Of a stretch of DNA of 64,000 nt, positions 6,224-62,175 are shown piece by piece (position 1 is the first letter of the stretch; every line of letters begins with the position of its first letter). A model generated the notes under the pieces. That model ran no database searches and had not been told where the DNA came from. It saw only the letters and a list, made by a program, of their open reading frames with translations. The DNA comes from a virus (lineage: Duplodnaviria; Heunggongvirae; Uroviricota; Caudoviricetes): the IMG/VR virus record IMGVR_UViG_3300033148_004507; one strand, written 5' to 3'. Position numbers and translations under genes: made by a program.

Positions 6224-6957
6224 TGAAAATCGATACCAAGATAACTAAAATCATCAAGGATTCTGAGGTCATCAGCATCACCAATGTCGGTAGCCACTTA
6301 TGGGGTATGAACCACGAAAACAGTGATGTAGATTATGGTCTTATCTACGTGGCCCCAAGTAGAAACATATTGCGTGGCAATGCCTTCACAGAATCTAAGC
6401 AGGTTGAAATAGGTAATAATGATTGGACAATCCATGAGCTTGGAAAGACTGTGAACATGCTAATGAAAGGCAATGTAAACTATGTCTGGATTGTAACATC
6501 GCCGTTGTCTTTACTATCTACTCTTTATATCGAAGAATTAAAAAAATTATATTTGAATAATATGTCTGCTAACATTTATCACAATATCAAAGGATTGGCA
6601 AAACACAATTACAAGAAATATTTGGTTGAGGGGAGGCTAGCTGATGGTGAACCATATTCGAATCTTGATAAGAAACGAAAGATAATCATTCGCACTCTTA
6701 AATTCGGTATTAATCTACTGGATGGTAATGGGATAATATATGAGCCAGTGGAGGGCGAAGTTAACGATAATCTAGTTAGACAATTCATGGATAATCTGGA
6801 AAATGCATATGAGCATACATCATTGCCAGAGAATCCAGACCGTGAAAAATATTATGATTATTTGGAAGATGTAAGAAGATACTTGTGTCAGCGACCACTC
6901 CGTGACTGGCATTGGTCAGGAGATGACTCTGAGAACTCAGACTCATGCGTTGATTAG
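6220..6957 (+). CDS. Pol-beta superfamily nucleotidyltransferase (minimal-NTase/KNTase-like, 245 aa); last ~25 codons lie inside the IscB-element left end
   Basis: GSHLWGMNHENSDVDYG = GSx9-11DxD NTase motif; size and helical C-terminal half resemble KNTase-type enzymes. Confidence 0.6.
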   Translation: MMKIDTKITKIIKDSEVISITNVGSHLWGMNHENSDVDYGLIYVAPSRNILRGNAFTESKQVEIGNNDWTIHELGKTVNMLMKGNVNYVWIVTSPLSLLSTLYIEELKKLYLNNMSANIYHNIKGLAKHNYKKYLVEGRLADGEPYSNLDKKRKIIIRTLKFGINLLDGNGIIYEPVEGEVNDNLVRQFMDNLENAYEHTSLPENPDREKYYDYLEDVRRYLCQRPLRDWHWSGDDSENSDSCVD

Positions 6958-8339
6958 GAGGCGACAAGAAACATGAAAACTATGCAAAAGTTAGAAGGGC
7001 GAGATACATACACACCTACGGATGCTCCACAAGTCCGTAGCCACTGTGATTCTGTGATTAAACATGACTGCGAGGTAGGTGAAGTGTTACAGGATTTAAA
7101 AACCCTTTCTAACAACTCCGATGTGGACTTACTCCAGCATACAGGAGGGCTTAAGGCCACTGTGTATGCATATGTGCTAAACAAGAACGGGAAACCACTG
7201 ATGCCCTGCAAGCCTGCCAAAGCAAGGCATTTGTTGAAGGAAGGCAGGGCAGAGGTGGTCAATAGGACTCCCTTCACGATTCGCTTATTATGGGATTGTG
7301 AAGATAATGTGAAACCAATAACACTTGGCATCGATGCTGGATATGGCAAAGTTGGTTTTAGTGCCGTATCTGATAAGAAAGAATTGGTGTCTGGGGAACT
7401 GACTTTAAGGAAAGGCATCTCCAAACTGATAGAGCAGAGAAGTAACTATAGAAGGACACGAAGGAACAAACTCTGGCATCGGCCACCTAGATTCCTTAAC
7501 AGAGCTAAACATAAAGGCTGGCTTGCACCTAGCATCCAACACAAGCTTGACAGCCATGTAAGACTTATCGAACAGATGAAATCAATCTTGCCGATAACAA
7601 ATGTTATTGTCGAGGTTGCGAATTTTGACATCCAGAAGATAAAGAATCCAGACATTAAAGGAGTCGAATACCAACAAGGGGAGCAGATGGGCTTTTGGAA
7701 TGTTGGAATGTTCGAGAGTATGTCTTACACAGAGACAACCATACTTGTCAGCACTGTAAGGGTAAAAAGAAAGATAAGATATTACAGGTGCATCACATCA
7801 ATAGCAAGAAAGAGGGTGCTACAGATAGGCCAGAAGAGTTATTGACAGTCTGTAAGACCTGCCATGATGGGCATCATGATGGTATCGATATAATACCAAT
7901 GAAGGAAATCAAGAACTTCAAGCCAGAGACTTTCATGACGATGGTTCACTGGAAGCTCACAGAATTATTGGATTGTGAACACACGTTTGGTTATATCACA
8001 AAAACCAATAGAATTAAGCAAGGTCTTGAAAAGAGCCATGTCAATGATGCATTTATCATTGCGGGTGGGGCAAAGCAGGAACGGTGCTTGCCACATGATG
8101 TCAAGCAAGTAAGACGAAACAATAGGTCAATACAGATGAATCGAAAGGGTTACAAGCTAGCAATAAGAAGAAAAAGATATAAATTACAACCAAATGATTT
8201 AGTAAGGTTTGAGAGGGTCAAACGCCGAGTCAAAGGAGTACACTGTTATGGTTCAAGAGCAATATTAGATAATAAGAAATCAGTTGCAATAACTAAAATA
8301 AAGTTGATATGCTATGGTAAGGGGATATGTTATGTGTAA
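6880..8339 (+). mobile_element. IS200/IS605-type non-autonomous element carrying iscB (copy 1); left boundary approximate
   Basis: ~95 nt upstream of ATG 6973 (TCAxCGACCAC ... TCTGAGxAxTCAGACTxxTGCGTTGATTAGGAGGC) plus the entire ORF are repeated at 13230..14553; homology ends exactly at the stop codons; no tnpA present. Confidence 0.7.
6973..8339 (+). pseudogene. iscB: IscB (OMEGA RNA-guided nuclease, Cas9 ancestor), frameshifted by an 8-bp tandem duplication
   Basis: PLMP domain (NGKPLMPCKPAKARHL); RuvC-I ITLGIDAGYGKVGFSAV; Arg-rich bridge helix RSNYRRTRRNKLWHRPPRF; RuvC-II ITNVIVEVANFD; HNH CQHCKGK...QVHHIN...CKTCHDGHH; RuvC-III HVNDAFIIAGG. TGGAATGT duplicated at 7696-7703/7704-7711 splits the ORF into 6973..7845 and 7695..8339; removing one copy restores ...FWNVREYVLHRDNHTCQHC... 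in frame. Confidence 0.85.
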
Positions 8340-13229: not shown

Positions 13230-14553
13230 GAGCTTGGTAAGGGTGAGTCAACGACCACACAGAACAGAAATGGTCTGGGGGCGAGTCTGAGCAATCAGAC
13301 TTGTGCGTTGATTAGGAGGCAATGAAAAGAATGAAAACCATGCAGAAGTTAGACGGGAGAGATACATACACACCTACGGATGCTCCACAAGTCCGTAGCA
13401 ACTGTGATTCTGTGATTAAACATGACTGCGAGGTAGGTCAAGTGTTACAGAGTTTGAAAACCCCGTCTAACAACTCCGATGTGGACTTACTCCAGCATAC
13501 AGGAGGGCATAATGCCACTATGTATGCATATGTTATAAATAAGAATGGAAAACCACTGATGCCCTGCAAACCTGCCAAAGCAAGGCATCTATTGAAGCAA
13601 GGTAGAGCCAAAGTAATCAACAGGAAGCCATTTACAATCCGACTATTATGGGATTGTGAAGATAATGTGCAACCGATTACGCTAGGCATCGATGCAGGCT
13701 ATAGCAAAGTTGGTTTCAGTGCCGTGTCTGAGAGTAAGGAATTGATGTCTGGGGAGCTAACATTACGAAAAGGCATCAATAAACTCATCGAGCAGAAAAG
13801 CAACTATAGAAGAACAAGACGGAATAAACTTTGGCATCGCCCACCGAGATTCCTGAACAGAGCCAAACCAAAAGGTCGCCTACCTCCGAGCATCCAACAT
13901 AAGCTCGACAGCCATATTAGGCTTGTCGAACAAATGAAAGCAATCCTGCCGATAACAAATGTTATTGTCGAGGTTGCGAATTTTGACATCCAGAAGATAA
14001 AGAATCCAGACATTAAAGGAGTCGAATACCAACAAGGGGAGCAGATGGGCTTTTGGAATGTAAAACCTGTCATGAAGAGCATCATGCGGGTATTGATATA
14101 ATCTCAGCAGTGGCAATCAAGAACTTCAAGCCAGAAACCTTTATGACGGTGGTTAATTGGAAGCTTACAGAACTATTAAATTGTGAGCATACCTTTGGCT
14201 ACATCACGAAGCATAATAGGATTAAGCAAGGTCTTGCAAAGAGTCATGTAAATGATGCGTTTATAATTGCAAGAGGTCATAGTCAGGGGCGATGCAAATA
14301 TTATGAAGTCAATCAAACGAGGAGAAATAATAGAAGCATACAATTGAATCGAAAAGGCTATAAACCATCTATCAGAAGAAAAAGATATAAGCTCCAATCC
14401 AATGACTTAATTAGAGATTCACAAAACAACACTGTTCTGAGAGCAAAGGGTGTATGCTCATATGGGCGGTCAATAAAATTGGAAGATGGGAGATATACAA
14501 ATGTTAAAAATATAAAATTAATATGTTATGGTAAAGGGATATGCTATATATGA
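13230..14553 (+). mobile_element. IS200/IS605-type iscB element (copy 2), left boundary approximate
   Basis: direct repeat of 6880..8339 (by-eye ~85% identity); preceded by a 200-nt noncoding stretch 13121..13321. Confidence 0.7.
13322..14553 (+). pseudogene. iscB: IscB copy 2, inactivated by ~139-bp out-of-frame deletion removing the N-terminal half of the HNH domain
   Basis: same PLMP/RuvC-I/bridge/RuvC-II as copy 1, then ...FWNV | KTCHEEHH...HVNDAFIIARG; CQHCKGK...QVHHIN segment absent; ORF split into 13322..14101 and 14053..14553 at the same TGGAATGT site as copy 1. Confidence 0.8.
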
Positions 14554-15920: not shown

Positions 15921-15970
15921 GATAGCAAAACTATTTATACTGAGAACGCATACAAAGTGACGGTGATAAC
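15921..15970 (+). promoter_or_regulatory. promoter/RBS cassette copy (GATAGCAAAACTATTTATACT...GTGACGGTGATAACATG)
   Basis: same cassette as 12664, 24856, 36584, 42045. Confidence 0.6.
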
Positions 15971-29969: not shown

Positions 29970-30329
29970 ATGGGTGAGGATGATAAGATTGAGAGGGGCG
30001 AAGTGATTCATCTGGTGCTAACGATTGTAGTTGTGATAGTTATGGCATTGGTTACTTGGGGATTCTTCAATTTCATGGAAGATAGGATGGCAGAGCCAGA
30101 ATATACGGAATATGATTTCGCATTAGGTAATACGACAGTAAAATATAATGGCGAGACTCTGAAAATCAAAATCAGAGACGAAGGCTACTATAAGATTTCA
30201 AAAGTTTATGAGAAAACCAATTCTTCAGAACATTGGTCGGGATGGGATTTAGGGGAAGCTCCACTCGATGAAAGAATAAATGGGGTTAATGTCGTTGAGG
30301 GTTACCAACGAGAAGTTAATTGGTACTAA
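29970..30329 (+). CDS. membrane-anchored protein
   Basis: ATG 29970 right after upstream TGA; TM helix VIHLVLTIVVVIVMALVTWGFF. Confidence 0.5.
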   Translation: MGEDDKIERGEVIHLVLTIVVVIVMALVTWGFFNFMEDRMAEPEYTEYDFALGNTTVKYNGETLKIKIRDEGYYKISKVYEKTNSSEHWSGWDLGEAPLDERINGVNVVEGYQREVNWY

Positions 30330-30348
30330 TTAGCTAAAAACTAATTGG
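30317..30348 (+). promoter_or_regulatory. cluster of palindromic CTAATTAG-family sites (TTAATTGG, CTAATTAG, CTAATTGG)
   Basis: at the transition from + strand array to minus-strand island; same motif family at 35745-35865 and 60656-60735. Confidence 0.45.
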
Positions 30349-30355
30349 TAGATAT

Positions 30356-30775
30356 TTATTTTCCGCCCTTGTTTGTGACGATTCTCTTTTTTATGTATGG
30401 ACAGCCCCTATTGATGATATACAAATCATCTCTTCCCCAATAATCATTTTTACATTGAGTATTATACAAAGGTTTGTGTGTGAAAATCAAAAAATTTTCA
30501 ACATCTCTAATTAATAATTTGGTGATTCTTTGATAATCTGATTTCTCAATATACCCTAACCAGAAAGATAATCCTTGTGTATTCATATCAAAATCTCGTA
30601 GGTTATTTTTAATTTCAGCAACCACATCCATGTGGTAGGCAATACCCATGTAGATTATTCCTCGCCCTCTTTGAAAAGCATAGAAATATGCATCCTCATA
30701 TTCTCTCAATTTACTATATGGTACTTTCACCCAATTAAGTGTCATTCCCTTTTTTGGTTTCACTTTTATTTTCAT
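30356..30775 (-). CDS. hypothetical protein (minus strand)
   Basis: start chosen at MKIKVKPKK preceded (in minus sense) by GGTGAGAGGTGG SD; track ORF extends to 30871. Confidence 0.45.
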   Translation of the reverse strand: MKIKVKPKKGMTLNWVKVPYSKLREYEDAYFYAFQRGRGIIYMGIAYHMDVVAEIKNNLRDFDMNTQGLSFWLGYIEKSDYQRITKLLIRDVENFLIFTHKPLYNTQCKNDYWGRDDLYIINRGCPYIKKRIVTNKGGK

Positions 30776-30921
30776 ATTCCACCTCTCACCGATATATGGA
30801 TGAGAAGCGAAAGGCATTTGGGGAAAGAGAATGGCTTGAATAATTAACAATAATAATTCTCCGCCCCTCACTTCTCAACATATGCATAATTTCGCACAAT
30901 ATAAATGTTTTTGACCATTTA

Positions 30922-31680
30922 TTAAGGCAACTCTTTTCTACAGCTCCCACAGAAATTGTAACCATTTGGATTGGTATCTCCGCAATACGGGCAAAACTTG
31001 TCTATCTTATCGTCTCCAGGTACTAAATTATCATTGTCGTCTATCTTATCATCATCGTACTCTTCCTCTGGTAATCCATATTTTGCAATAAGCTCTGCAC
31101 CAACTGAAACAAGAATTCCACCTATGACACATAGCACCCATCCATATCTTAAGCCTAGTATACTCATTGCTTCGCCAAATGAAATGTCATTAGAAAGAGA
31201 AACAATGTAGAATCCATGTATTAAAACACCTTGGGAAATCAAAGCGATTAAGAATCCTCCAAGATATAGCAATCTACACACATAATATTCTCTTACGGAT
31301 AGAACAATCATGAATAGTATGGCACATAATCCTGCAATCATTGGTAAAAAGTCAAGATACCAGATGTCAAAATAAAGACCAATATTCCATCCAGTAATCC
31401 CACCATAAATTCCATTATAAAATGGCTCAGACATCCCTCTAAAGAATAATATGATTCCAAAGAAGCCAACAGCAGTGCCTATCACAAGAAAAATTGGAGT
31501 TTCTCTATCACCAAAAACTATAGTCTCTTCTTTGACAGACTCATCAGATACAATCATTAAAAACCCAAATATACATAAAAGAAATGATATAGGAAAACTA
31601 ATGTCTACCCACCAGAATAAAAGGCATATTACTGCTAATATAAACATGAATGACCCGATTATACCCAGTTTAATCCTCAT
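30922..31680 (-). CDS. polytopic membrane protein with C-terminal zinc ribbon
   Basis: 6-7 TM helices; C-term FCPYCGDTNPNGYNFCGSCRK; GGTGA SD upstream. Confidence 0.6.
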   Translation of the reverse strand: MRIKLGIIGSFMFILAVICLLFWWVDISFPISFLLCIFGFLMIVSDESVKEETIVFGDRETPIFLVIGTAVGFFGIILFFRGMSEPFYNGIYGGITGWNIGLYFDIWYLDFLPMIAGLCAILFMIVLSVREYYVCRLLYLGGFLIALISQGVLIHGFYIVSLSNDISFGEAMSILGLRYGWVLCVIGGILVSVGAELIAKYGLPEEEYDDDKIDDNDNLVPGDDKIDKFCPYCGDTNPNGYNFCGSCRKELP

Positions 31681-31694
31681 CTCTTCACCGTAAC

Positions 31695-32324
31695 CTAGTC
31701 ATCAAACCTCTTATTTCGTTTATTGACTGCATATAATGGAACTATAATTGCAGGTAATATCGCCATAGTACACACTTCCCCACCAGTATCTTCTCCACCA
31801 GTATCTCCACTAGAACCTCCTCCTGTGTCATCTCCTGTAATAACCACAGTATCATCACCGTTATCCACGACAGAATCCTTGATTATCTGGATAGTGTAGG
31901 TGTATTCCTTAGTGGTTGCAATATCCCATTCAGACCACACACCTTCTTCTGATGCAATTACTTCGATTGTAGCTATATGACTTCCAATATCTACTTGGAA
32001 TTCACTAGGCACAGTTACTTCCCAGGAGAAAGTATAGCTATTCCCTGCTTCTACAATAACACTCGTTTGACTGGATGTATAGCCAGTCATAGCTAAATTC
32101 CAATCAAAAAATAGGTGTACTCTCTCAACCCTCAATGATTCAGAATATGTGTTTGTCAGTACGTATTTAAAAGTATACGCATAATTATTCTTGATACCCT
32201 CTGTTGGCTCTAGTGTTCCAGATACTTCCCATTTATCATATCCCTCAACTGGAATGGCTATTATAATCATTCCTAGGATTATTAGCCAAACTACAATGAA
32301 TCCATATTTTCCCACGATTCTCAC
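31695..32324 (-). CDS. secreted/surface-anchored protein (signal peptide, Gly/Asp/Thr linker, C-terminal TM)
   Basis: N-term FIVVWLIILGMIIIAIPV, DTGGGSSGDTGGEDTGG linker, MAILPAIIVPLYAV + NKRNKR tail; GTG start. Confidence 0.55.
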   Translation of the reverse strand: MRIVGKYGFIVVWLIILGMIIIAIPVEGYDKWEVSGTLEPTEGIKNNYAYTFKYVLTNTYSESLRVERVHLFFDWNLAMTGYTSSQTSVIVEAGNSYTFSWEVTVPSEFQVDIGSHIATIEVIASEEGVWSEWDIATTKEYTYTIQIIKDSVVDNGDDTVVITGDDTGGGSSGDTGGEDTGGEVCTMAILPAIIVPLYAVNKRNKRFDD

Positions 32325-32348
32325 CTAATCGCCTAATGCTGGAAAACT

Positions 32349-32372
32349 ATTTTAAAGTATCCATACGGTACG
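32349..32372 (+). promoter_or_regulatory. promoter-cassette variant GGAAAACTATTTTAAAGTAT in divergent intergenic region
   Basis: resembles GCAAAACTATTTATACT; ~45 nt upstream of GTG/ATG 32415-32420. Confidence 0.4.
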
Positions 32373-32414
32373 CATACCACAGAATACCACATATAGAGAA
32401 AGGACAATCTGGAA

Positions 32415-32606
32415 GTGATGCCAAAGGAATCAAAACGCTATAAATACAAAACAGTAACACTTCCAGAGCCACTCATGGAAGAAATCAAACAATTCATTGA
32501 TGACCATCCCGAACTAGGATATGGTAGTGTTACTGAGTTCATTAAAGAGGCATCTCGTGGTCAAATGAAAGAGTATTATCTTATTATGAAGATGAAGATG
32601 AAGTAG
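32415..32606 (+). CDS. ribbon-helix-helix (CopG/Arc-like) DNA-binding protein
   Basis: KRYKYKTVTLPEPLMEEIKQFIDDHPELGYGSVTEFIKEA = beta-strand + two helices typical of RHH regulators. Confidence 0.55.
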   Translation: MMPKESKRYKYKTVTLPEPLMEEIKQFIDDHPELGYGSVTEFIKEASRGQMKEYYLIMKMKMK

Positions 32607-32655
32607 TTTTGACCACAAAATCGATATATAGTCGTAATCGTTTTAGCAAAGCTAT

Positions 32656-33417
32656 ATGGCTGAAGAAAATGAAGAATGGGAAGAAATGAATAATAAAATA
32701 AAAAGAAAATTAAGTAAAGAAAATGAAGCATTAAGAAGAGAGAATAATAATTTAACTAGAGAGAACATGCAATTGAAAAAAGATAATATTGCTTACAGAG
32801 GGCAGTATAATCTTATTGATGATAGATTTTATGAAATTAATAGTCCAGAGTTGGAAGAATCAGTTATTCATAAAATTTCTGAAGAATTGATAGATGCTTT
32901 AATAAAATGCGATAAATTAGATAATGATGAATATCTATCAAGATATATGCAGATGTATATGGATAAGCCAGATGGGGATTATTATGTGTTCAATTGGGAT
33001 AAGGCAAAGAAACCAGAAAGGTTACATCGGGGAGCTTATAAATTTCTTTTATCACAACTGCCAGAGCAATTACATTTCAAGCAAGAGAGAGAATCTTCAT
33101 TGTCACATTTAGGTAAAGGTGAAAGTCCGAATGAAAGTGACATAATAGGAATTTTAACTTATTTAGATGTAGATATTGCAAAGGGAGAAAGGGGAGCATG
33201 GAATGATTTTTGGATTGATATTATATATGCAAATATAGACAATAAATTAGGATTAAAACAATCTGATATGGTTCAGAAAAGCAAAGATAATTCTCATTCA
33301 TGGGGAAAAGAACCTATTAGGCTCGCTGTAAAAACCTTAAAAGAAAATGGCCTGTTGAAGAAAAAAGGAAGTCGTTATATTATTGATAAAACAAATCTAA
33401 AGATAATCTGTAAATAA
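32656..33417 (+). CDS. hypothetical protein with N-terminal coiled coil
   Basis: 253 aa; KENEALRRENNNLTRENMQLKKDN. Confidence 0.5.
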   Translation: MAEENEEWEEMNNKIKRKLSKENEALRRENNNLTRENMQLKKDNIAYRGQYNLIDDRFYEINSPELEESVIHKISEELIDALIKCDKLDNDEYLSRYMQMYMDKPDGDYYVFNWDKAKKPERLHRGAYKFLLSQLPEQLHFKQERESSLSHLGKGESPNESDIIGILTYLDVDIAKGERGAWNDFWIDIIYANIDNKLGLKQSDMVQKSKDNSHSWGKEPIRLAVKTLKENGLLKKKGSRYIIDKTNLKIICK

Positions 33418-33419
33418 GT

Positions 33420-35200
33420 TGGACTCCTCTTCTGAAGTTGGAAAAAAGTTGTTATTTTGTTGGAAAAAAGTTGTTTTTTACACCATAATTTTGAATTATA
33501 TGGAAATAATCTGTAAATTCACATCCAGTTTAAATGCTATAAGTTTCATAAGATTATATCGCAGTCAAGAAGATTGGTGGCCTCTCGGTGAATGTCGTAT
33601 ACTATATCGAGGCTTCTTGACTGCTCTAAATCATTAAGGTGATTCCTGTAAACGAAGATGATGATGATTATGACAGCAAAACCATAAACGGCAAATGGCT
33701 ACGAAAATGTTATGCTTTACCTATTCAAACTCAACGAAAGTTGACAGATTACCAGAATGACTTAAATAATGTCAATCTGCATAGAATTAAAGTGAGGCCA
33801 GATTATTTGCGTAACCTGACCTCTGGAGCTGATAAGATGTGTTCAACAAAGTTATCAACCCCGAAGAAAGCTATGGATGAAGAGACAAATAAAAGTTTCC
33901 ATACGTTAGTCTATATGAATCCAACAGGCTTCGCTGAGGGGGAAAGTGAGCCAGGTATAAGAATGACAGTTGTAGGGAGTGAATACCCTACCTTTTATCA
34001 AAGTTTTTGGACTGAGCCAGACTTTAGTAACCCGACCAATGACAATCCGATGAGAGCATCCGAATTCTTGAGTAAACTGAATTTGGATAACGTATTAGAT
34101 GCCATTGGTCAGAAATATGGAAATAAAAAATGGCATTTCAGGTATCCTCCTGAAGCCATGATTAAGGCTTTGGTGTTCAAGTACATCAAAGGTTTGAGGC
34201 ACGATACACGCCTAGTAAGATACTTAAAAGCCCATCCCGAAGAGGCGAAATTACTAGGATTCATTGAAGTAAAAGGTGAATTGAAAATACCGAGCCAACA
34301 GACATTCAATCATTTTGTCTTGGCGAGGTTGAGGAATGAAGGATTATATGACATATTTGATAGCCTTGTATTAGAACTCAAGGATAAGATGAGTATGCTC
34401 GGTCTGCAACTGGGTAAAACTGTGTCTGTTGATTCAACGCCTTTATCGAGTATGAAGAATGACAAAGATGCTAAATACAATCCGCATTATGACATTAAAG
34501 GATATAAAGTACATAATGTGATAGATGCAGATTTCTTCCTTCCACTTGCCTTAAATTTCACTACTGCGATAGATGGGGATTCGCCACAGTATCTCCCATT
34601 GTTAGACAGATTACACACGATGGGATTTGATTTTGGGACGATTCTTGCAGATGGAGCTTATGCTTCTCTTGAACATTTTGCAATTGTACATCGGTATTAC
34701 AGAGCCAAAGCCATTTTCAAATTGAAGAAAAATAATCGTATAAGAAAAGAAGGAACATTGAAAGGAATTAAGAAGAGATATGAATCATTATGGAAAAAAG
34801 ATGGATACAAGCCAGATGCAGGAATAGATTACATGCTAGCATTCCTTTATTTTCAAGGTGATATTAAAGCGGTTGGAAGCTATTATCATAACAAGCATTT
34901 TGTGGACTGGACAAATAATTACGATGAGAAAAAGAAGGAATTTAATCAAAGGGCAGGAATAGAGGCGTTTCATGGGCATTTAAAGTATCAGATGAACCTT
35001 GAGATATTTCTTGATAAGAAAGGCATTAGAAACGCTGAAATGCACGTTCAATTGACGTATATCTCATTACTGTGCGTGGCTCTGTGCAGAGTTCAGCATG
35101 GAGTTACTGAGGGTCTTGTGAATGTGAAGTGTCTTGTTTAGGCACTTCTTCTTTATTTTTTTAAAAAATGCAAAGATTAAAGAATAGATTAAGTATTTCC
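33420..35200 (+). mobile_element. IS4/IS5-superfamily insertion sequence (boundaries approximate, terminal IRs not confidently identified)
   Basis: single DDE transposase ORF; upstream tandem TTGGAAAAAAGTTGTT x2 at 33447-33485. Confidence 0.5.
33639..35141 (+). CDS. DDE transposase, IS4/IS5 superfamily
   Basis: N-term FRYPPEAMIKALVFKYIKGL; catalytic VSVDSTP (D), ILADGAYAS (D), NQRAGIEAFHGHLK (R-x3-E-x6-K). Confidence 0.8.
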   Translation: MIPVNEDDDDYDSKTINGKWLRKCYALPIQTQRKLTDYQNDLNNVNLHRIKVRPDYLRNLTSGADKMCSTKLSTPKKAMDEETNKSFHTLVYMNPTGFAEGESEPGIRMTVVGSEYPTFYQSFWTEPDFSNPTNDNPMRASEFLSKLNLDNVLDAIGQKYGNKKWHFRYPPEAMIKALVFKYIKGLRHDTRLVRYLKAHPEEAKLLGFIEVKGELKIPSQQTFNHFVLARLRNEGLYDIFDSLVLELKDKMSMLGLQLGKTVSVDSTPLSSMKNDKDAKYNPHYDIKGYKVHNVIDADFFLPLALNFTTAIDGDSPQYLPLLDRLHTMGFDFGTILADGAYASLEHFAIVHRYYRAKAIFKLKKNNRIRKEGTLKGIKKRYESLWKKDGYKPDAGIDYMLAFLYFQGDIKAVGSYYHNKHFVDWTNNYDEKKKEFNQRAGIEAFHGHLKYQMNLEIFLDKKGIRNAEMHVQLTYISLLCVALCRVQHGVTEGLVNVKCLV

Positions 35201-35208
35201 TAATTTCT

Positions 35209-35724
35209 ATGTGCGAAAGAAAGAAAAGGCAATTATTAAATTTAATAGAAGTTCTTCTCGAAGATATTGAGAAAAATAAAGATGAATGGAACTTACCTAC
35301 CGATGATTCAGATACGCGTGAAGTGGAAGCATGGAATAGTGTACTCGCAATCCAAACAAAACAGCTTAATGATATTGTGAATAACGTTAGAAAGATGTAT
35401 GAAAATGATGAAACTTATGAATTATTAGGAGGGGTCAGGGTGCAGGAGATGATGTCATTTACACAACTATATCTCCCTGCACGAAAACTCTATGCTTTTG
35501 TGAAACATGATATTGAATATGAAGAAAACATTGAATTAAAATGGTTAAAAAATAGATATGAAGAATTAGGCATGTGGCAGAAGAAATTAGAGAAAGACAT
35601 CAAAGGTGTGCCAAATCGAGAAGAATGGGATGATTTTACACAGATGATGGAAGCCACCCTTGAGAATATCCAGACAAAAATTAATGAATTGGAAGAACTA
35701 TCTAAGAGAGGACTTGATTTGTAG
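35209..35724 (+). CDS. hypothetical coiled-coil protein
   Basis: 171 aa, helical/acidic. Confidence 0.45.
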   Translation: MCERKKRQLLNLIEVLLEDIEKNKDEWNLPTDDSDTREVEAWNSVLAIQTKQLNDIVNNVRKMYENDETYELLGGVRVQEMMSFTQLYLPARKLYAFVKHDIEYEENIELKWLKNRYEELGMWQKKLEKDIKGVPNREEWDDFTQMMEATLENIQTKINELEELSKRGLDL

Positions 35725-35744
35725 TGTAATTGAAGGTTACTAAT

Positions 35745-35865
35745 TAGCACTGAAATTTCAAGACAAATTCATAAGTTTTATATAGGTTACTAATTAGAGT
35801 CAAATCTATATTGAAATTGATACCTTTTTATAGGCTACTAATTAAAATCTACTAATTGGTAACCC
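35745..35865 (+). promoter_or_regulatory. four CTAATTAG-family sites (GGTTACTAATTAG x2, GGCTACTAATTAA, CTACTAATTGGTAACC) with TTTTATATA boxes
   Basis: CTAATTAG is itself an 8-bp palindrome; sites at 35750, 35790, 35838, 35852; upstream of phosphatase gene. Confidence 0.5.
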
Positions 35866-35958
35866 TCGTCGTTGATGACTATATTGGAAGGTCAATGATA
35901 TATCTAAGATTAGATAGGGTTGACACAGGGGAAGTTGAGTATGTGAGGGTGAATTAAT

Positions 35959-36345
35959 ATGGCAGATGAAATAATACACAATCTCTGGCTAGGAGATTTG
36001 GATGATGCCAACGAGGTTTGCAGGGCCGAGTATGACCATGTAATCAACGTGCTTGGAATCATAGAGCCAGATGACGAGACAGGAAAGGTGGATGTGGATG
36101 TTGTAAATGCAATATCATTCTTAATAAAGAAGATGCTGGACGTGGACAAGAGAATACTTGTGCATTGCGGTGCTGGCATGGAGAGAAGCCCATTGGCTGT
36201 TGCCTGGTATCTCTGGAAGCATGAGGATTTTAAGAGCCTGGACGATGCGTACAGGTTCATAAAATCCAAGAGGCAGTTAATTATGCATTGTGGTCATTGG
36301 GTATCGTGGGGGGATGTGCATGGCAAAATGTTGTCCGAACTGTAA
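35959..36345 (+). CDS. dual-specificity protein phosphatase
   Basis: VHCGAGMERSPLAVAWYL = HCx5R(S) P-loop; N-term NLWLGDL like DUSP. Confidence 0.8.
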   Translation: MADEIIHNLWLGDLDDANEVCRAEYDHVINVLGIIEPDDETGKVDVDVVNAISFLIKKMLDVDKRILVHCGAGMERSPLAVAWYLWKHEDFKSLDDAYRFIKSKRQLIMHCGHWVSWGDVHGKMLSEL

Positions 36346-42044: not shown

Positions 42045-42094
42045 GACAGCATAACTATATATACTGCTGATGTATACTAAGTGACGGTGATAAC
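42045..42094 (+). promoter_or_regulatory. promoter/RBS cassette copy
   Basis: GACAGCATAACTATATATACT...GTGACGGTGATAACATG. Confidence 0.6.
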
Positions 42095-57786: not shown

Positions 57787-58591
57787 GGCAGTGGTATCAC
57801 ATTTTCAGATAGACCTGCCATTTCTAAGGCCAGAGTATGAAGGCTTGTCCAGACTAGGCTCACATGAGAAAGTTACAGAGGGGCTATACAGGTGGACATT
57901 CAAGACTGATAAATTAGGGGATGTTCAGAACATTCTTGGTGGTAAGATAATCCAATACAATAAAGACAATCTTTTAATGGATATTCTACCGCACTGTGAA
58001 CCATTGATGGAAGAGCTTGAAACCAGTGTGCATAAGAAGGGCAAGGGGACGATAGCTGTTGCAGTAGAGGGTGAAGGGTACTATGTAACATGGTATCAAG
58101 CAGGTAAGCCTGTAACACACCTTGTAGCGAAGAGTCTTGTGGAATTAATTTGGAATGAAGTCATCTCAAAGCAACCATATGGTGAGAGGATTCCAACCAG
58201 GGATGTATGTGCAAACATAGTCAAGGCTCTGGAGCTAAATCATTGGAATTATCCTATGTTTGTAGAGGATAAGCAAAATAATTATATGAGGGAGTGTATC
58301 AAGGTCGGCAAATGGAATCATGCCAGGTCGAAGGACTTTAATTTCGCCTATTTCTTTGGTAAGAGAGGCGATTATTTCAAGTTGTTCTACACTCCAATTA
58401 AATGTTTGAAAGGACTTGACTGGATTGACCATACTAAGGACGGAACCATCATCAGACTAAAAGAATCTGACGACTTCTATAAGGGTGTCAGGTTCGATGA
58501 GATTGTCATGATTCAAAAGGAATGTGAAGAAGAACTATGTCGGCCAGAAAACCCTGACGACATATTACAATGGTCGGAGGGGTTCAAGTAA
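57767..58591 (+). CDS. hypothetical protein
   Basis: ATG 57767 in-frame in track ORF 57668 (track N-term reads through basic tail of upstream gene in another frame). Confidence 0.5.
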   Translation: MGKKIIEAVVSHFQIDLPFLRPEYEGLSRLGSHEKVTEGLYRWTFKTDKLGDVQNILGGKIIQYNKDNLLMDILPHCEPLMEELETSVHKKGKGTIAVAVEGEGYYVTWYQAGKPVTHLVAKSLVELIWNEVISKQPYGERIPTRDVCANIVKALELNHWNYPMFVEDKQNNYMRECIKVGKWNHARSKDFNFAYFFGKRGDYFKLFYTPIKCLKGLDWIDHTKDGTIIRLKESDDFYKGVRFDEIVMIQKECEEELCRPENPDDILQWSEGFK

Positions 58592-58692
58592 TACGAAAAT
58601 GCAGGGATAATCAAATCCCCATCCCTGCACTAAATAATATAAGTCATGAAACCTATACCCCTACCACGACATGAAACCAATGAGGAATATAT

Positions 58693-59544
58693 ATGACACA
58701 AGAGAATTTAAATAAGCAAAAGCGAATCGCACTTTTATTCATGGAAAATCCATTGACAAAATTACGGTTTTCAGATGTAAAAAGAATGACTGGATTTAAA
58801 GACAGTGCAATTAAATCATCATTGAGGAGACTATCTAACAAATTAATAATTATGAGGATTCAAGTAGGAAAAAACCATTCTTATGCTTTAAGGGATATGC
58901 ATAAAGCCAAAAGATACATAAATGGGGCTGAAGGTGGGGAGATAGTTGAAAAACAGGGTATGGATTTTTTGGATGGTATTATAAGGCAAGAAAAGCATCA
59001 TAGGTTTTTTCAAATTAAATTAACAGATGAAGAATGGAAAAAGAATGAAATATATTACACAAAACCTAGTGAAAACGACAGAGCTAAAAATTCTATACAT
59101 GAATTAGGCAGTTTTAAAATAATCATAAGCAGAAAGAGTTTAAATGGGACTATATATTTACTAGCTGAAGATTGGGAATCTGAATTGAAGTCCTTATATC
59201 CGAGACTTTATTTCGATGTGAAAAGATTAGAAGAATCGGAATCTGGTCATTTAGGTGTATCTATTGATATGGATGCATGGTCGAAGATTAGATTAAACGC
59301 AGACGATTTAAGGGTAGTATTTGCGAAATCACATTTCTGGAAAGAGATAGATGCCGAAGGTAGCGAGATTTTAGTGAATTCTTTTTTACAAAACATTATA
59401 AAGACATCTTTTGATAAAACTACTACAGAGGTTGTGATTGCAAAATCATTAGAAAGGTTAAATCAGACATTATCAGAGCAGAATTTGTTACTCAATCAAC
59501 TACTTACAAGTATACGTGATTTATCGGAAAAGGAGGATAAATGA
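58693..59544 (+). CDS. wHTH protein, paralog A
   Basis: N-term wHTH-like; central block HHRFFQIKLTDEEW...LNGTIYLL..DW...GHLGVSID...HFWKEID..G.E..VNS.LQNI.KTS shared with 59612 gene. Confidence 0.55.
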   Translation: MTQENLNKQKRIALLFMENPLTKLRFSDVKRMTGFKDSAIKSSLRRLSNKLIIMRIQVGKNHSYALRDMHKAKRYINGAEGGEIVEKQGMDFLDGIIRQEKHHRFFQIKLTDEEWKKNEIYYTKPSENDRAKNSIHELGSFKIIISRKSLNGTIYLLAEDWESELKSLYPRLYFDVKRLEESESGHLGVSIDMDAWSKIRLNADDLRVVFAKSHFWKEIDAEGSEILVNSFLQNIIKTSFDKTTTEVVIAKSLERLNQTLSEQNLLLNQLLTSIRDLSEKEDK

Positions 59545-59557
59545 AGAGTATATCGGT

Positions 59558-59580
59558 GGTTCCCGCATGATACGGGAACC
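59558..59580 (+). terminator. hairpin GGTTCCCG-catgata-CGGGAACC
   Basis: perfect 8-bp IR between the two paralog genes. Confidence 0.4.
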
Positions 59581-59611
59581 ATACAACGAGGGAACTATGG
59601 AGTAATGTTTG

Positions 59612-60613
59612 ATGGCAGATGATGATGTAAAAGATAGGTATAGGAGGCTAGTAGCTATATTCCTAAATTTTCCAACAGATAGTTATCGCCAGAGAGATTT
59701 AATTAAGAACACAGGATTCCCCGATGGGACGATAAAATCATTTTGTCATAAATTTAAAAAGAAAGGAATTATAAGGGGCTTTAGACCAGAAGGCAAGAGA
59801 TATTTTAGATATATGCTAAAAGACCACGACTTAGCTTATAGATATTTGAAAGAGCCATCATTCAACTGTACGAATAAGCGAGGGTATACACCTAGCCCAC
59901 ACCCTAGAGATTATTTGGCGACCATGATTCCGCAGGAAGAGCATCACAAATTTTATCAAATCAAACTTACAGAGCAAGAGTTTGCGAGGACGGAGCATTT
60001 ATTCTCTAAATCAAAACCGAATGATAGGGGGAAGAATAGAACTTATGAGGCGAGAAGTTATAAAATTAACGTTAGCCAGAACACATTAAATGGTGTAATC
60101 TATCTTCTTGACACAGATTGGAAGCAGAGGTTGATGGACACCTACCCAGACCTATGCGATGCTCTTTGTAAAAAGATTGAATTAGAGAATGGTCATCTCG
60201 GCGTATCAATTGATGCTGAGAGTTGGGCAGGCTTTAAATTATCTGATGAATTCTTGACTACAATCTTTGCCTCTTCTCATTATTGGAAGGAGCTTGATTT
60301 CGAGGGCAAAGAAAAGTATGTTAATTCAATGTTGCAAAACATTGTTAAGACCTCGCAAGAAAAGACTACTTTTGAGGCTACAATAAGTATATTGATGAAA
60401 GAGCTTTTAACGAGAACAGACAGGAGCAATGAGCAGTCTGTTGGTATGCTGGCTATCCTTCAACAACTGAGTGACAGGCTCGATAAAGGTAATGACCTAC
60501 AAGAGAGGTCGATTGTGATATTGGAAACTCTTGTGAATGGTAAGAAGAAAGAGGACGAGCCAGACAAGCCAGTTAAGGAACTGGATGAGCATGATTTGAT
60601 AATGTTTGCTTGA
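59612..60613 (+). CDS. wHTH protein, paralog B
   Basis: EHHKFYQIKLTEQEF...LNGVIYLL.TDW...GHLGVSID...HYWKELD.EGKEKYVNSMLQNIVKTS. Confidence 0.55.
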   Translation: MADDDVKDRYRRLVAIFLNFPTDSYRQRDLIKNTGFPDGTIKSFCHKFKKKGIIRGFRPEGKRYFRYMLKDHDLAYRYLKEPSFNCTNKRGYTPSPHPRDYLATMIPQEEHHKFYQIKLTEQEFARTEHLFSKSKPNDRGKNRTYEARSYKINVSQNTLNGVIYLLDTDWKQRLMDTYPDLCDALCKKIELENGHLGVSIDAESWAGFKLSDEFLTTIFASSHYWKELDFEGKEKYVNSMLQNIVKTSQEKTTFEATISILMKELLTRTDRSNEQSVGMLAILQQLSDRLDKGNDLQERSIVILETLVNGKKKEDEPDKPVKELDEHDLIMFA

Positions 60614-60637
60614 AATTGATTATTACTCTATTTCAAT

Positions 60638-60755
60638 ACACTGGCTCTATATTTATGTACAACTAATTAATGGAATATTGAATTAGTTGTACATAAAATT
60701 AGAAATTCAAGCAATTACCTGTACAACCAATTAATCTAAGGTCAAGAGCCAGTGT
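60638..60755 (+). promoter_or_regulatory. nested palindromic array: ACACTGGCTCT ...[TGTACAACTAATTAATGG / AATTAGTTGTACA / TGTACAACCAATTAATC]... AGAGCCAGTGT
   Basis: 11-bp outer IR (60638-60648 / 60745-60755) enclosing a 13-bp IR of the CTAATT family; followed by A-rich iteron-like AAAAAGTCA x2, AAAAAACAGA/AAAAAATCAGA. Confidence 0.5.
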
Positions 60756-60897
60756 TAATAAAAAGTCAAAAAACAGAATAAAAAATCAGAATTGGGAATA
60801 AAAAGTCACAAATTAATTTAAGGGCAACGTTCTTAACGATGGTTTGGCTGTGTGCCACGTCTAGCATACATTATGCATACAACGTTAAACACATTAG

Positions 60898-60920
60898 GAC
60901 AGCAAAAACATTTATATACA
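60898..60920 (+). promoter_or_regulatory. promoter-cassette-like GACAGCAAAAACATTTATATAC without attached ORF
   Basis: same BRE/TATA-like core as the recurring cassette; nearest ORF start 61084 (~160 nt away). Confidence 0.4.
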
Positions 60921-61083
60921 ACAAGGACTTATGCTTTGATTATGTTAAATATGAAAAAAGACCACGACATAAACTGGTGTGATTAGGTTGTGGATGAATT
61001 GTGTAGAAAGTAGTGATACAATTGAGGCTGAGGGCAGTTACAAGCCCCTTCCTGAAAACAATAATGTTTTAGGGGGGGAGTAA

Positions 61084-61752
61084 TTGACGTTAGAAGAGAA
61101 CGAGCAGGGGAGCCAGGATTCTATATTCGCAGAATTGTGGAAATCATTCAAAGATTCGAGTAAGGAGGACAAGAAACTTCTAATTATGGTTATGTATATG
61201 GCATGTATAATTGTTACGTATCTATATCTAATGGATGGATTTAGTTTTAGCACATTCATCATGGTGTCTGCATTCTACGCTGTGGTGGTCTGGGGCATTG
61301 CGATATTCTTATCAATAGAAACTTTTTTAGAACGGCCAGACATTCTAGAATACTGCATAGCTCTTACAATCGCATCATTCGTTCTCTTCTTGATAATATT
61401 AGGTACACCATTGCGTATTGAAAATGCAGAGCTTTACAACTCAGAGGTTAGATTTACATATCTTGAAAGCGTGGATGTTAATTTGGAATTCAATGAATCA
61501 TACTTTGAAATTACATTCTTGAATGAGGGGAATTATAGTATCGAATACAAGAACAGTACGATGAGTGGGGATTTATTGGTTCGGCAATATAGTTCTTTGG
61601 GTATCGAGGAAGCGGTGTTTCATAAGGATGTTAGTGAATTGATATACGCCTCATACAGTAGGCCAGGGTTGTATCTCAAAATTATGGATGAAGATACTGG
61701 CAGTTACAGCGAATTCGATTTTATATTCCATAGGGCGTGGTTCAGTGAATAG
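61084..61752 (+). CDS. polytopic membrane protein (TTG start)
   Basis: 4 TM helices in N-terminal half. Confidence 0.5.
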   Translation: MTLEENEQGSQDSIFAELWKSFKDSSKEDKKLLIMVMYMACIIVTYLYLMDGFSFSTFIMVSAFYAVVVWGIAIFLSIETFLERPDILEYCIALTIASFVLFLIILGTPLRIENAELYNSEVRFTYLESVDVNLEFNESYFEITFLNEGNYSIEYKNSTMSGDLLVRQYSSLGIEEAVFHKDVSELIYASYSRPGLYLKIMDEDTGSYSEFDFIFHRAWFSE

Positions 61753-61908
61753 GTTCAGAAAGTTTGTCAGATGCGGTGATTACCCCCAATCTCAGCCGTG
61801 TCTTTCAAGCCTGAAAAGGCAAATGGTACTCATGGCATCTTTTTATCGAGATGTACTTGTTGGTCGCAAGCAGTTGCCATTTGTCTCTATTTTTTTGGGG
61901 GGAATATA

Positions 61909-62175
61909 ATGCCTACGGATTTCAATGAGATAACAAATCTTGTGTTAAACCCCTATATGTTGTTGGCTCTGGGTTTGTGTATTGCATACTTCATACATGA
62001 ACGGTATAAAAGAGCCATAGATACTGCGACAATGATGGCATCGATTGAGAAGCACAGGGTAGAGAACCACCCGTCAGAGTCATTGAATTACAATCACATG
62101 AAAGAGTGGGCAGTAGAAAACGATAGTGGCTTTAACGAGTTTCTTGAGGGGTTAGAGGAGGAATGCCCCATATGA
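61909..62175 (+). CDS. small membrane protein
   Basis: ATG 61909 in-frame in track ORF 61798; TM LVLNPYMLLALGLCIAYFI. Confidence 0.45.
   Translation: MPTDFNEITNLVLNPYMLLALGLCIAYFIHERYKRAIDTATMMASIEKHRVENHPSESLNYNHMKEWAVENDSGFNEFLEGLEEECPI

Follow-up and report, generated by a model that had tools for sequence, protein, structure and literature searches.

Background

Iteron origins are known from plasmids and from phage lambda; in ori-lambda, four phased dyad-symmetric repeats are bound by the winged-helix O protein and lie beside an AT-rich tract. Archaeal RNA polymerases terminate transcription at oligo-T, and Methanosarcina uses several consecutive U-tracts. The cis-acting sites of uncultivated archaeal viruses, i.e., origins, centromeres and regulatory platforms, are almost entirely unmapped. 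Here we analyse the gap at positions 60614-61083 of a 64,000-nucleotide stretch of DNA (hereafter the window) from the IMG/VR virus record IMGVR_UViG_3300033148_004507, which an earlier note had described as a candidate replication origin or noncoding RNA (ncRNA) locus. Our data suggest that the gap would hold two independent elements, a promoter and a separate repeat module with two repeat families (60638-60816), and that the module would be a cis-acting site for sequence-specific protein binding. The locus is a small and well-delimited candidate, with two repeat cores, two adjacent genes for winged helix-turn-helix (wHTH) proteins, and natural variants that either have or lack the module.

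The module resembles iteron origins, including ori-lambda, in its several 20-32-bp repeats with conserved cores and fixed spacing and in the dyad symmetry of one of the two families. As in ori-lambda, an A/T-rich tract with A-runs adjoins the repeats and the gene for a winged-helix protein lies next door. It differs from iteron origins in that it comes without initiator homology, nearby replication genes or a skew signal, and in that it is missing at the orthologous site of a close relative. A likeness to the oligo-T zones of Methanosarcina is seen in four T5-T6 tracts on the minus strand, which in one relative (L126) immediately follow the stop codon of an antisense gene in convergent orientation. 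Unlike in those zones, the tracts are parts of 20-bp units with a GTCA-containing core, there is no tract on the plus strand, and the gene that would be terminated is missing in the window.

Sequences compared

The two key relatives were L002, with a wHTH protein 83% identical to paralog B of the window, and L126, with an ortholog of the membrane protein encoded downstream of the gap; the L126 sequence is too short to show presence or absence of wHTH paralog A. Further relatives compared at the locus were L003, L107, L108, L110, L111 and L113, while L001 represents an independent assembly. The positions of the features discussed below are listed in Table 1.

Table 1. Features in and around the intergenic gap (positions refer to the window; an empty strand cell means that no strand was assigned)
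Feature	Position	Strand	Description
wHTH paralog A, 283 aa	58693..59544	+	BLASTP against paralog B: 38% identity, E = 2e-62
wHTH paralog B, 334 aa	59609..60613	+	N-terminal winged helix, beta-rich middle domain, long helix, conserved C-terminal DLxMF(G/A) tail
Composite palindrome	60638..60755		11-bp perfect outer inverted repeat around three 32-bp units (60649-60680, 60681-60712, 60713-60744)
Inner hairpin or cruciform (putative)	60646..60703		Arms 60646-60668 and 60681-60703, 12-nt loop
Three TGTACA centres	60656..60725		At 60656, 60688 and 60720; exact 32-bp spacing; flanks oriented +, -, +
Three 20-bp direct repeats	60757..60816		Core AATAAAAA(G/A)TCA; exact 20-bp spacing; Tandem Repeats Finder period 20, 2.8 copies
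Conserved block upstream of promoter	60830..60897	+	CTTAACGATGGTTTGG and direct repeat GCATACAT..GCATAC, 11 nt apart
Archaeal-type core promoter	60898..60918	+	B recognition element (BRE)-like GACAGCAAAA, then TTTATATA at 60911-60918
Ancestral leaderless start (GATTATG), now heading a 14-codon open reading frame (ORF)	60942..60986	+	Distance to TATA box as in L002 and L126
Lineage-specific insertion, ~142 nt	60945..61086	+	Flanked by (G)TTA direct repeat; absent from L126 and L002
Membrane-protein gene, 222 aa, TTG start	61084..61752	+	L126 ortholog 73% identical, starts at leaderless ATG

Structure and conservation of the repeat module

The left part of the module is a composite palindrome, the outer arms of which (ACACTGGCTCT, 60638-60648, and AGAGCCAGTGT, 60745-60755) are complementary at 11 of 11 positions. 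Between them TGTACAACYAATTAAT occurs three times, at 60656 (+), 60678-60693 (-) and 60720 (+), and three of the 19 TGTACA sites in the 64 kb are found in the module. The inner inverted repeat has 23-nt arms that are 91% complementary with a 17-bp perfect core, and the corresponding hairpin is present in the minimum-energy folds of RNA as well as of DNA. With respect to GC-corrected folding energy, positions 60631-60760 rank first among 4258 sliding 130-nt windows (z = -4.8), and the DNA fold of 60630-60765 has z = -7.1 relative to shuffles. A search of the 64 kb for perfect inverted repeats (11-mer, spacer ≤120 nt) gave 15 hits at six places, compared with ~2.2 hits expected, and two of these places, one including a 17-bp repeat, are nested in this locus. 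The repeats that the earlier note listed are, with one exception, present where it placed them and far exceed what chance would give. The exception, an inverted repeat GTTAACG...CGTTAAC, was recovered in part only: TTAACG/CGTTAA is present, but the 16-nt arms are 75% complementary and GTTAAC does not occur in the region; moreover, the second arm of TTAACG/CGTTAA is not conserved in L002.

To the right of the palindrome AATAAAAAGTCA appears twice, 40 nt apart and with AATAAAAAATCA between the copies, and together these form a 20-nt tandem array of 2.8 copies; AAAAGTCA has only three occurrences in the 64 kb. On the minus strand the 20-bp units read as T5-T6 tracts. As in iterons, where at least three direct repeats of ~17-22 bp share a conserved core and are regularly spaced, the window has three units and L126 four to five. 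The description of the A-rich repeats as iteron-like is upheld by L126, which retains both repeat families at the exact 32-bp and 20-bp spacing but with another copy number.

Specifically, the L126 module has the same left flank and retains an 8-bp core of the outer inverted repeat (CACTGGCT/AGCCAGTG). Four TGTACA centres (at 509, 541, 573 and 605) follow with a 32-bp period, where the unit at 566-597 is identical to window unit 60681-60712 at 32 of 32 positions, and four AATAAAAAGTCA units (at 646, 666, 686 and 706) plus a partial fifth have the same 20-bp spacing as in the window. When the seven 20-bp units of the two genomes are taken together, identity amounts to 90% in the 12-nt core and to 46% in the 8-nt spacer, and units at the same position are more alike across the two genomes than are units inside one genome, which suggests that the array is old and that the cores are under selection. 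The module as a whole is 86% identical between the window and L126, whereas the flanking genes reach 73% when only 4-fold degenerate sites are counted (Fisher p = 0.012) and 66% for third codon positions (p = 6e-8). Relative to L126 one compensatory pair, TTTATGTACA/TGTACATAAA to TTTCTGTACA/TGTACAGAAA (TTTA.../...TAAA to TTTC.../...GAAA), keeps the inner hairpin. According to the alignment with L126, the repeat cores, the spacing and the hairpin have been maintained by selection, whereas drift is seen in the number of units and in the spacers. The idea that the palindromes are unique to this genome, which came from comparison with L002, L003, L107, L108 and L113, was overturned by L126.

The orthologous site in L002 is without module, which shows that the module is dispensable at this site, and it is single copy in the ~70 kb available. 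Its presence in the window and L126 and its absence in L002 also fit selfish or decayed mobile DNA, such that the 118-bp palindrome would be an insertion resembling a miniature inverted-repeat transposable element (MITE), with terminal inverted repeats and no function for the virus. Like MITEs it is small and AT-rich, it varies in presence between relatives, and perfect 11-bp terminal repeats (8-bp core kept in L126) surround an internally repetitive core; the genome has a DDE transposase and two IscB/HEARO elements, and the locus is prone to rearrangement, with a tRNA remnant, the insertion of paralog A, an antisense gene deletion and the 142-nt insertion all close by. Unlike MITEs, the module has no second copy in the window, L001 or IMG/VR (host genomes were not included in this search), no target-site duplication is evident at its flanks, and it is more conserved than synonymous sites, our proxy for neutral change. 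Furthermore, the inverted repeat does not enclose the A-rich array, which is nevertheless gained and lost jointly with the palindrome. Mobile DNA without function appears to us an improbable explanation. Kinship of the palindrome to the DDE element of the window was rejected, since the ends of that element carry no similar inverted repeat.

Pattern searches gave little. For the outer inverted repeat there was one match in IMG/VR, in unrelated coding DNA, and for the inner hairpin none. The 16-/17-mers TGTACAACYAATTAAT, CTTAACGATGGTTTGG and AGAAATTCAAGCAATTA gave single matches only; by BLAST the match sets of the latter two had no or only ~25-nt similarity to the window or the module, and that of TGTACAACYAATTAAT was judged to be due to chance from its single matches alone. 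In Rfam nothing reached gathering score at the locus, and the E-value mode returned only generic microRNA-hairpin matches (~15-22 bits compared with thresholds of 67-195); a known RNA family at the locus was rejected on these results. An invertible promoter switch (inverton) was likewise discarded, with no recombinase adjacent and with L001 and L126 showing the same orientation as the window.

Function of the module

In L002 (1887-2009, minus strand) and L126 (740-850, minus strand) a small antisense gene of 36-40 codons lies between the wHTH gene and the promoter block. The predicted protein is basic and Gly/Arg-rich (MT.K.KPK..G..G...GRGRG), and the gene has its own TATA box, which diverges from the promoter of the type present at 60898. 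In the window the antisense gene is deleted together with its promoter. In L126 the wHTH gene and the antisense gene converge, and the module is located between their stop codons; the two stop codons are 6 nt apart in L002, with no module between them. The window has both the module and paralog A. L002 has neither; there a tRNA-Phe gene and a single wHTH gene occupy the position orthologous to that of paralog A. Given the tRNA remnant, the gain of paralog A, the loss of the antisense gene and the variable presence of the module, the locus is a rearrangement hot spot.

A protein-binding, cis-acting DNA module is the interpretation that we favour, tentatively, over the others. The conserved cores, the fixed spacing, the variable copy number and the single-copy status argue for sequence-specific recognition of duplex DNA. 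The 32-bp TGTACA units would be clamped by the outer inverted repeat, the first two could extrude as a hairpin or cruciform, and the 20-bp AATAAAAAGTCA units would come next. The adjacent wHTH proteins would most likely be the binders, in line with the joint presence of paralog A and the module in the window and their joint absence in L002. In L126, which has the ancestral layout, the module is situated between convergent 3' ends and away from promoters, and it would for this reason more likely act as a genome-maintenance site (origin-like or partition-like) or as a boundary/insulator than as a classical operator.

Several points weigh against protein binding. Although L002 has an ortholog of wHTH B that is 83% identical, it lacks the module, so B does not need the module at this site, and two genomes only are informative on the co-occurrence of paralog A and the module. 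As the module is present in a single genome other than the window, the statistics on conservation and covariation rest on two sequences, and tandem duplication alone would also yield exact spacing. The compensatory change argues for base pairing, either in RNA or in extruded DNA, and not for simple duplex recognition. Finally, the A-rich units read on the minus strand as good archaeal oligo-T terminators, just past the antisense stop codon in L126. Were the module no more than a selfish insertion or an element for a boundary or terminator, it would be ordinary.

An alternative is that the module marks a transcription-unit boundary through RNA and RNA polymerase, where the hairpin would belong to the 3' untranslated region of the wHTH mRNA and the minus-strand T5-T6 tracts would be stacked terminators for the antisense gene. 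The position of the module in L126, exactly between the convergent stop codons and with the first minus-strand T6 beginning 19 nt past the antisense stop, agrees with this, as do the preserved hairpin and the RNA fold of 60614-60830 (z = -3.8); a dispensable module, missing in L002, would suit an accessory insulator. However, the plus strand of the window lacks T-runs of ≥4 between 60614 and 60900, and the module would therefore not terminate the wHTH transcript. After wHTH B the plus strand has no T5 in the window and one T5 in L126. A terminator scan based on the bacterial-type stem-plus-T-run model found no site in the region, and the 17-23-bp stem is far longer than a terminator hairpin. 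A boundary would also leave unexplained why GTCA is present in every unit, why cores and spacers differ so much in identity and why TGTACA recurs with a 32-bp period, and the array has been kept in the window even though the antisense gene is lost. We regard a boundary of this kind as unlikely, but as less so than the insertion of mobile DNA.

Protein binding could also serve replication. If the module were a replication origin, the 20-bp and 32-bp repeats would be iterons for a wHTH initiator, the AT-rich tract would unwind, and the palindrome would aid melting or loading. The layout is that of an iteron origin, with three to five direct repeats, a conserved 12-bp core and fixed spacing beside dyad-symmetric units, at 25-26% GC; copy number differs between genomes while the cores are conserved, and the module is single copy in the available sequence. 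It adjoins genes for predicted DNA-binding proteins, in L126 it is not at a promoter, and if the 126,219-bp contig is the source, the site is located about mid-way along a ~126 kb genome. Positions 60610-60709 constitute the fifth least stable 100-bp duplex in the window, and 60621-60820 (GC 0.25) is the third lowest 200-nt window in GC; the window thus has other sites that exceed the locus in AT content or in duplex instability.

On the other hand, there is no GC-skew inflection at the locus or in the fine profile, covering ~11 kb upstream and 9.5 kb downstream. The skew is positive on both sides (0.16-0.46), and genes that share one strand may mask a replication signal. Cumulative skew, which had been suggested as a check of the origin hypothesis, increases monotonically across the locus and continues to do so for 6.6 kb past the end of the window. 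A scan of 111 ORFs of the window gave no Orc1/Cdc6, MCM, primase, polymerase or Rep family, and an archaeal oriC of the type with origin recognition boxes and orc1/cdc6 was rejected on the lack of Orc1/Cdc6, MCM and other replication families in this set. The wHTH family matches regulators, while matches to DnaD-like or O-like initiator families are weak and isolated, involve single members and cover the winged helix alone, and L002 has no module at the orthologous site despite its closely related wHTH gene. Hence the earlier proposal of a candidate origin stands with regard to the iteron-like anatomy, but it finds no backing in the skew, in the replication proteins of the window or in L002. 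We consider an origin unlikely, if still the first of the alternatives to protein binding in general. A bolder version, which we regard as doubtful, is that the module would be an origin or centromere-like site of a ~126 kb methane-seep archaeal virus, in which each of two iteron families would be read by one paralog of an undescribed initiator family, composed of wHTH, novel beta-rich domain, coiled coil and C-terminal DLxMF tail, and the module and its cognate paralog A would move as a cassette.

The wHTH proteins and their genes

The two upstream wHTH proteins had been described as paralogous, and the BLASTP comparison (Table 1) bears this out. A winged helix is confidently modelled at the N-terminus of both, with the domain resembling transcription regulators (MarR, Fur, PadR, Sta1 and Lrs14). 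For the remainder, i.e., the beta-rich domain, the long helix and the DLxMF(G/A) tail, there was no known match.

Upstream of the paralogs, GCAGGGATAATCAAATCCCCATCCCTGCA at 58601-58632 is an internally deleted tRNA-Phe(GAA) remnant, in which the acceptor stem and the T arm are retained; at the corresponding position L002 has an intact tRNA-Phe gene (722-799). Paralog A sits between this remnant and a conserved stretch upstream of paralog B. Just 5' of wHTH B a hairpin, GGTTCCCG...CGGGAACC, is present at 59556-59581; L002 keeps it (~815-840) as AGTTCCT...GGGAACT, followed by GGAACTATGG repeats. This hairpin may be a leader structure or an autoregulatory site. At the other end of the gene, the last codons and the stop codon of wHTH B (TTGCTTGAAATT, 60606-60617) are complementary at 11 of 12 positions to the AAATTCAAGCAA part of a 32-bp unit (60703-60714), and a weaker form of this complementarity is seen in L126 (448-469 compared with 546-567). 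The wHTH B stop codon could be engaged in long-range pairing with the 32-bp unit.

In two other relatives TTCCACTGGAA is present upstream of the wHTH gene and before the TATA box, once in L003 (1140-1175) and twice in L108 (4030-4073). Its CACTGG core is common to the outer inverted repeat of the window, which may reflect chance or a family-specific operator. The neighbours of the wHTH family genes vary. In L003 (from 2388) and L107 (from 2107), both more distantly related, the gene is directly followed by a long ORF with cysteine motifs that by eye are Cas4/RecB-type nuclease-like, while a serine recombinase is found in L109, and an HNH gene and a TnpB-like ORF in L108.

The promoter and the inserted leader

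The right part of the gap, 60830-60945, is very probably an ordinary conserved archaeal promoter for the downstream membrane-protein operon; it would be a BRE/TATA promoter. In archaeal promoters a TTTAWATA box with a purine-rich BRE upstream is positioned ~25-30 nt before the transcription start, and those parts that can be read from the sequence are present here. The block 60830-60897 aligns to L002 2057-2130 and to L126 ~888-960 (85% identity to L126), and in total ~115 bp are common to L002 and L126, including CTTAACGATGGTTTGG, two copies of GCATAC, CAAAAACATTTATATACA and GATTATG. CAAAAACATTTATATACA is identical in L002, it reads GATAGCAAAAACATTTATATACA in L126, and the same kind of motif is present in L113. 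As in archaeal leaderless BRE/TATA promoters, the TTTATATA box follows a purine-rich BRE-like element. Counted from the first base of the TATA box, the ATG is 31 nt away in the window as well as in L002 and L126, and in the two relatives it serves as start codon for the orthologous membrane-protein gene, so that a leaderless mRNA is implied; in the window the transcription start is predicted at ~60942. The L002 ortholog of the membrane protein is highly diverged.

Unlike in typical BRE/TATA promoters, the BRE-like element is an extended virus-wide GAYAGCAAAA motif. The promoter-cassette copy reported at 60898 is real and one of ~7 in the window: GAYAGCA(A/T)AA with a TATA box occurs at 15921, 24856, 36584, 42045, 57363, 57444 and 60898, in each case before a gene start, such that the cassette is reused genome-wide. 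Four of these cassettes (15921, 24856, 36584 and 42045) also share GAYAGCA(A/T)AAC-TATATATAC...AAGTGACGGTGATAACATG(A/G)CAGG, i.e., promoter, leader and first codons (MTGD...) are repeated. In the Joint Genome Institute assembly of this genome two contigs meet at ~42,097, beside the cassette copy at 42045. A pattern search with the promoter 22-mer gave no match. Predicted bacterial sigma-70 promoters and intrinsic terminators had counts at the level of shuffled sequence, with none in the module.

The promoter had been taken for an orphan that might drive an ncRNA. This does not hold, as the promoter and ~70 bp upstream of it are kept in L002 and L126 directly ahead of the membrane-protein gene. 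In the window the ~142-nt insertion separates the promoter from the gene at 61084, and the ~160-nt gap can thus be understood as a lineage-specific 5' leader with no need for an ncRNA. The statement that this gap has no ORF is loosely true, but one ORF of 14 codons begins at 60942, and another of 34 codons (60979-61083) shares the frame of the 61084 gene, with one TAA codon between them. In L126 the coding sequence (TCAGAAGAGAACGAG...) joins directly to the ATG, and on this ground we rejected the possibility that 60942-61083 is decayed N-terminal coding sequence; the stretch is an insertion. No second copy of it was found in the window. In this genome the insertion would supply a structured leader, a ribosome-binding site and the TTG start. 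The RNA fold of 60920-61100 has z = -3.7, and in the predicted fold CCCCUUCC forms a 3' hairpin of the insertion with GGGGGGAG, the ribosome-binding site of the 61084 gene. CCCCUUCCUG inside the inserted leader (61046-61080) pairs with GGGGGGAG in the predicted fold. The locus hence documents a leaderless archaeal gene that was turned into a leadered one by insertion.

The module could also be a classical operator array, where wHTH proteins bound to the TGTACA units would repress or activate either their own operon or the promoter at 60898, as in an early-late or lysis-lysogeny switch. Three dyad-centred sites beside regulator-like wHTH genes would be in keeping with such a role, and relatives have other small repeats upstream of wHTH genes (e.g. 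TTCCACTGGAA in L003 and L108). However, in the window 190-290 bp lie between the sites and the downstream TATA box, and in L126 the whole antisense gene lies between them and the promoter, with the sites downstream of both neighbouring genes. No TGTACAAC-type site is present at any other promoter cassette, and the conserved candidates near the promoter are other motifs, namely the two GCATAC copies and CTTAACGATGGTTTGG. An operator array is in our judgement very unlikely. In order of decreasing probability, we would consequently list a protein-binding module, a replication origin, an RNA or termination boundary, a selfish insertion and, last, an operator array.

Genomic setting

The window is ~40% GC, has one dominant coding strand and is packed with small ORFs of no assigned kind. 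Recognisable genes encode HNH endonucleases, an RNA ligase, a terminase-small-subunit-like protein, YopX, GmrSD_N, a DDE transposase and two IscB/HEARO elements. The window matches two contigs of Joint Genome Institute sample 3300033153 (84,152 and 42,548 bp), and the membrane protein encoded downstream of the gap is found on a contig of 126,219 bp as well. Three observations indicate an uncultivated archaeal virus with a ~126 kb genome: the BRE/TATA promoters, the best structural match to a viral protein, which is to one from an uncultured archaeal virus, and the wHTH domains matching Sta1 and Lrs14. The relatives found for the local genes are from metagenomes of South China Sea cold seeps. 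In a search for the host, the wHTH family and the transposase had no relatives in 185,579 reference genomes; the wHTH family had no match in IMG/VR, and neither window positions 58000-62000 nor the L126 module had a match in cultured-phage databases.

Two HEARO (IscB omega-RNA) matches above the Rfam gathering score were found on the plus strand at 6887-7132 and 13247-13490 (90 and 105 bits, respectively). Each overlaps the start of an RRXRR/IscB-like ORF (6973-7845 and 13322-14101), and this archaeal-virus-like genome therefore holds two IscB elements. Finally, a low-GC island at ~30,300-36,000 (GC 0.34-0.36) contains the sole minus-strand genes of the window (30356-32324) and a DDE_Tnp_1 transposase gene (33639-35141). 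This island is responsible for the only GC-skew dip of the window and probably represents a mobile region that was inserted.

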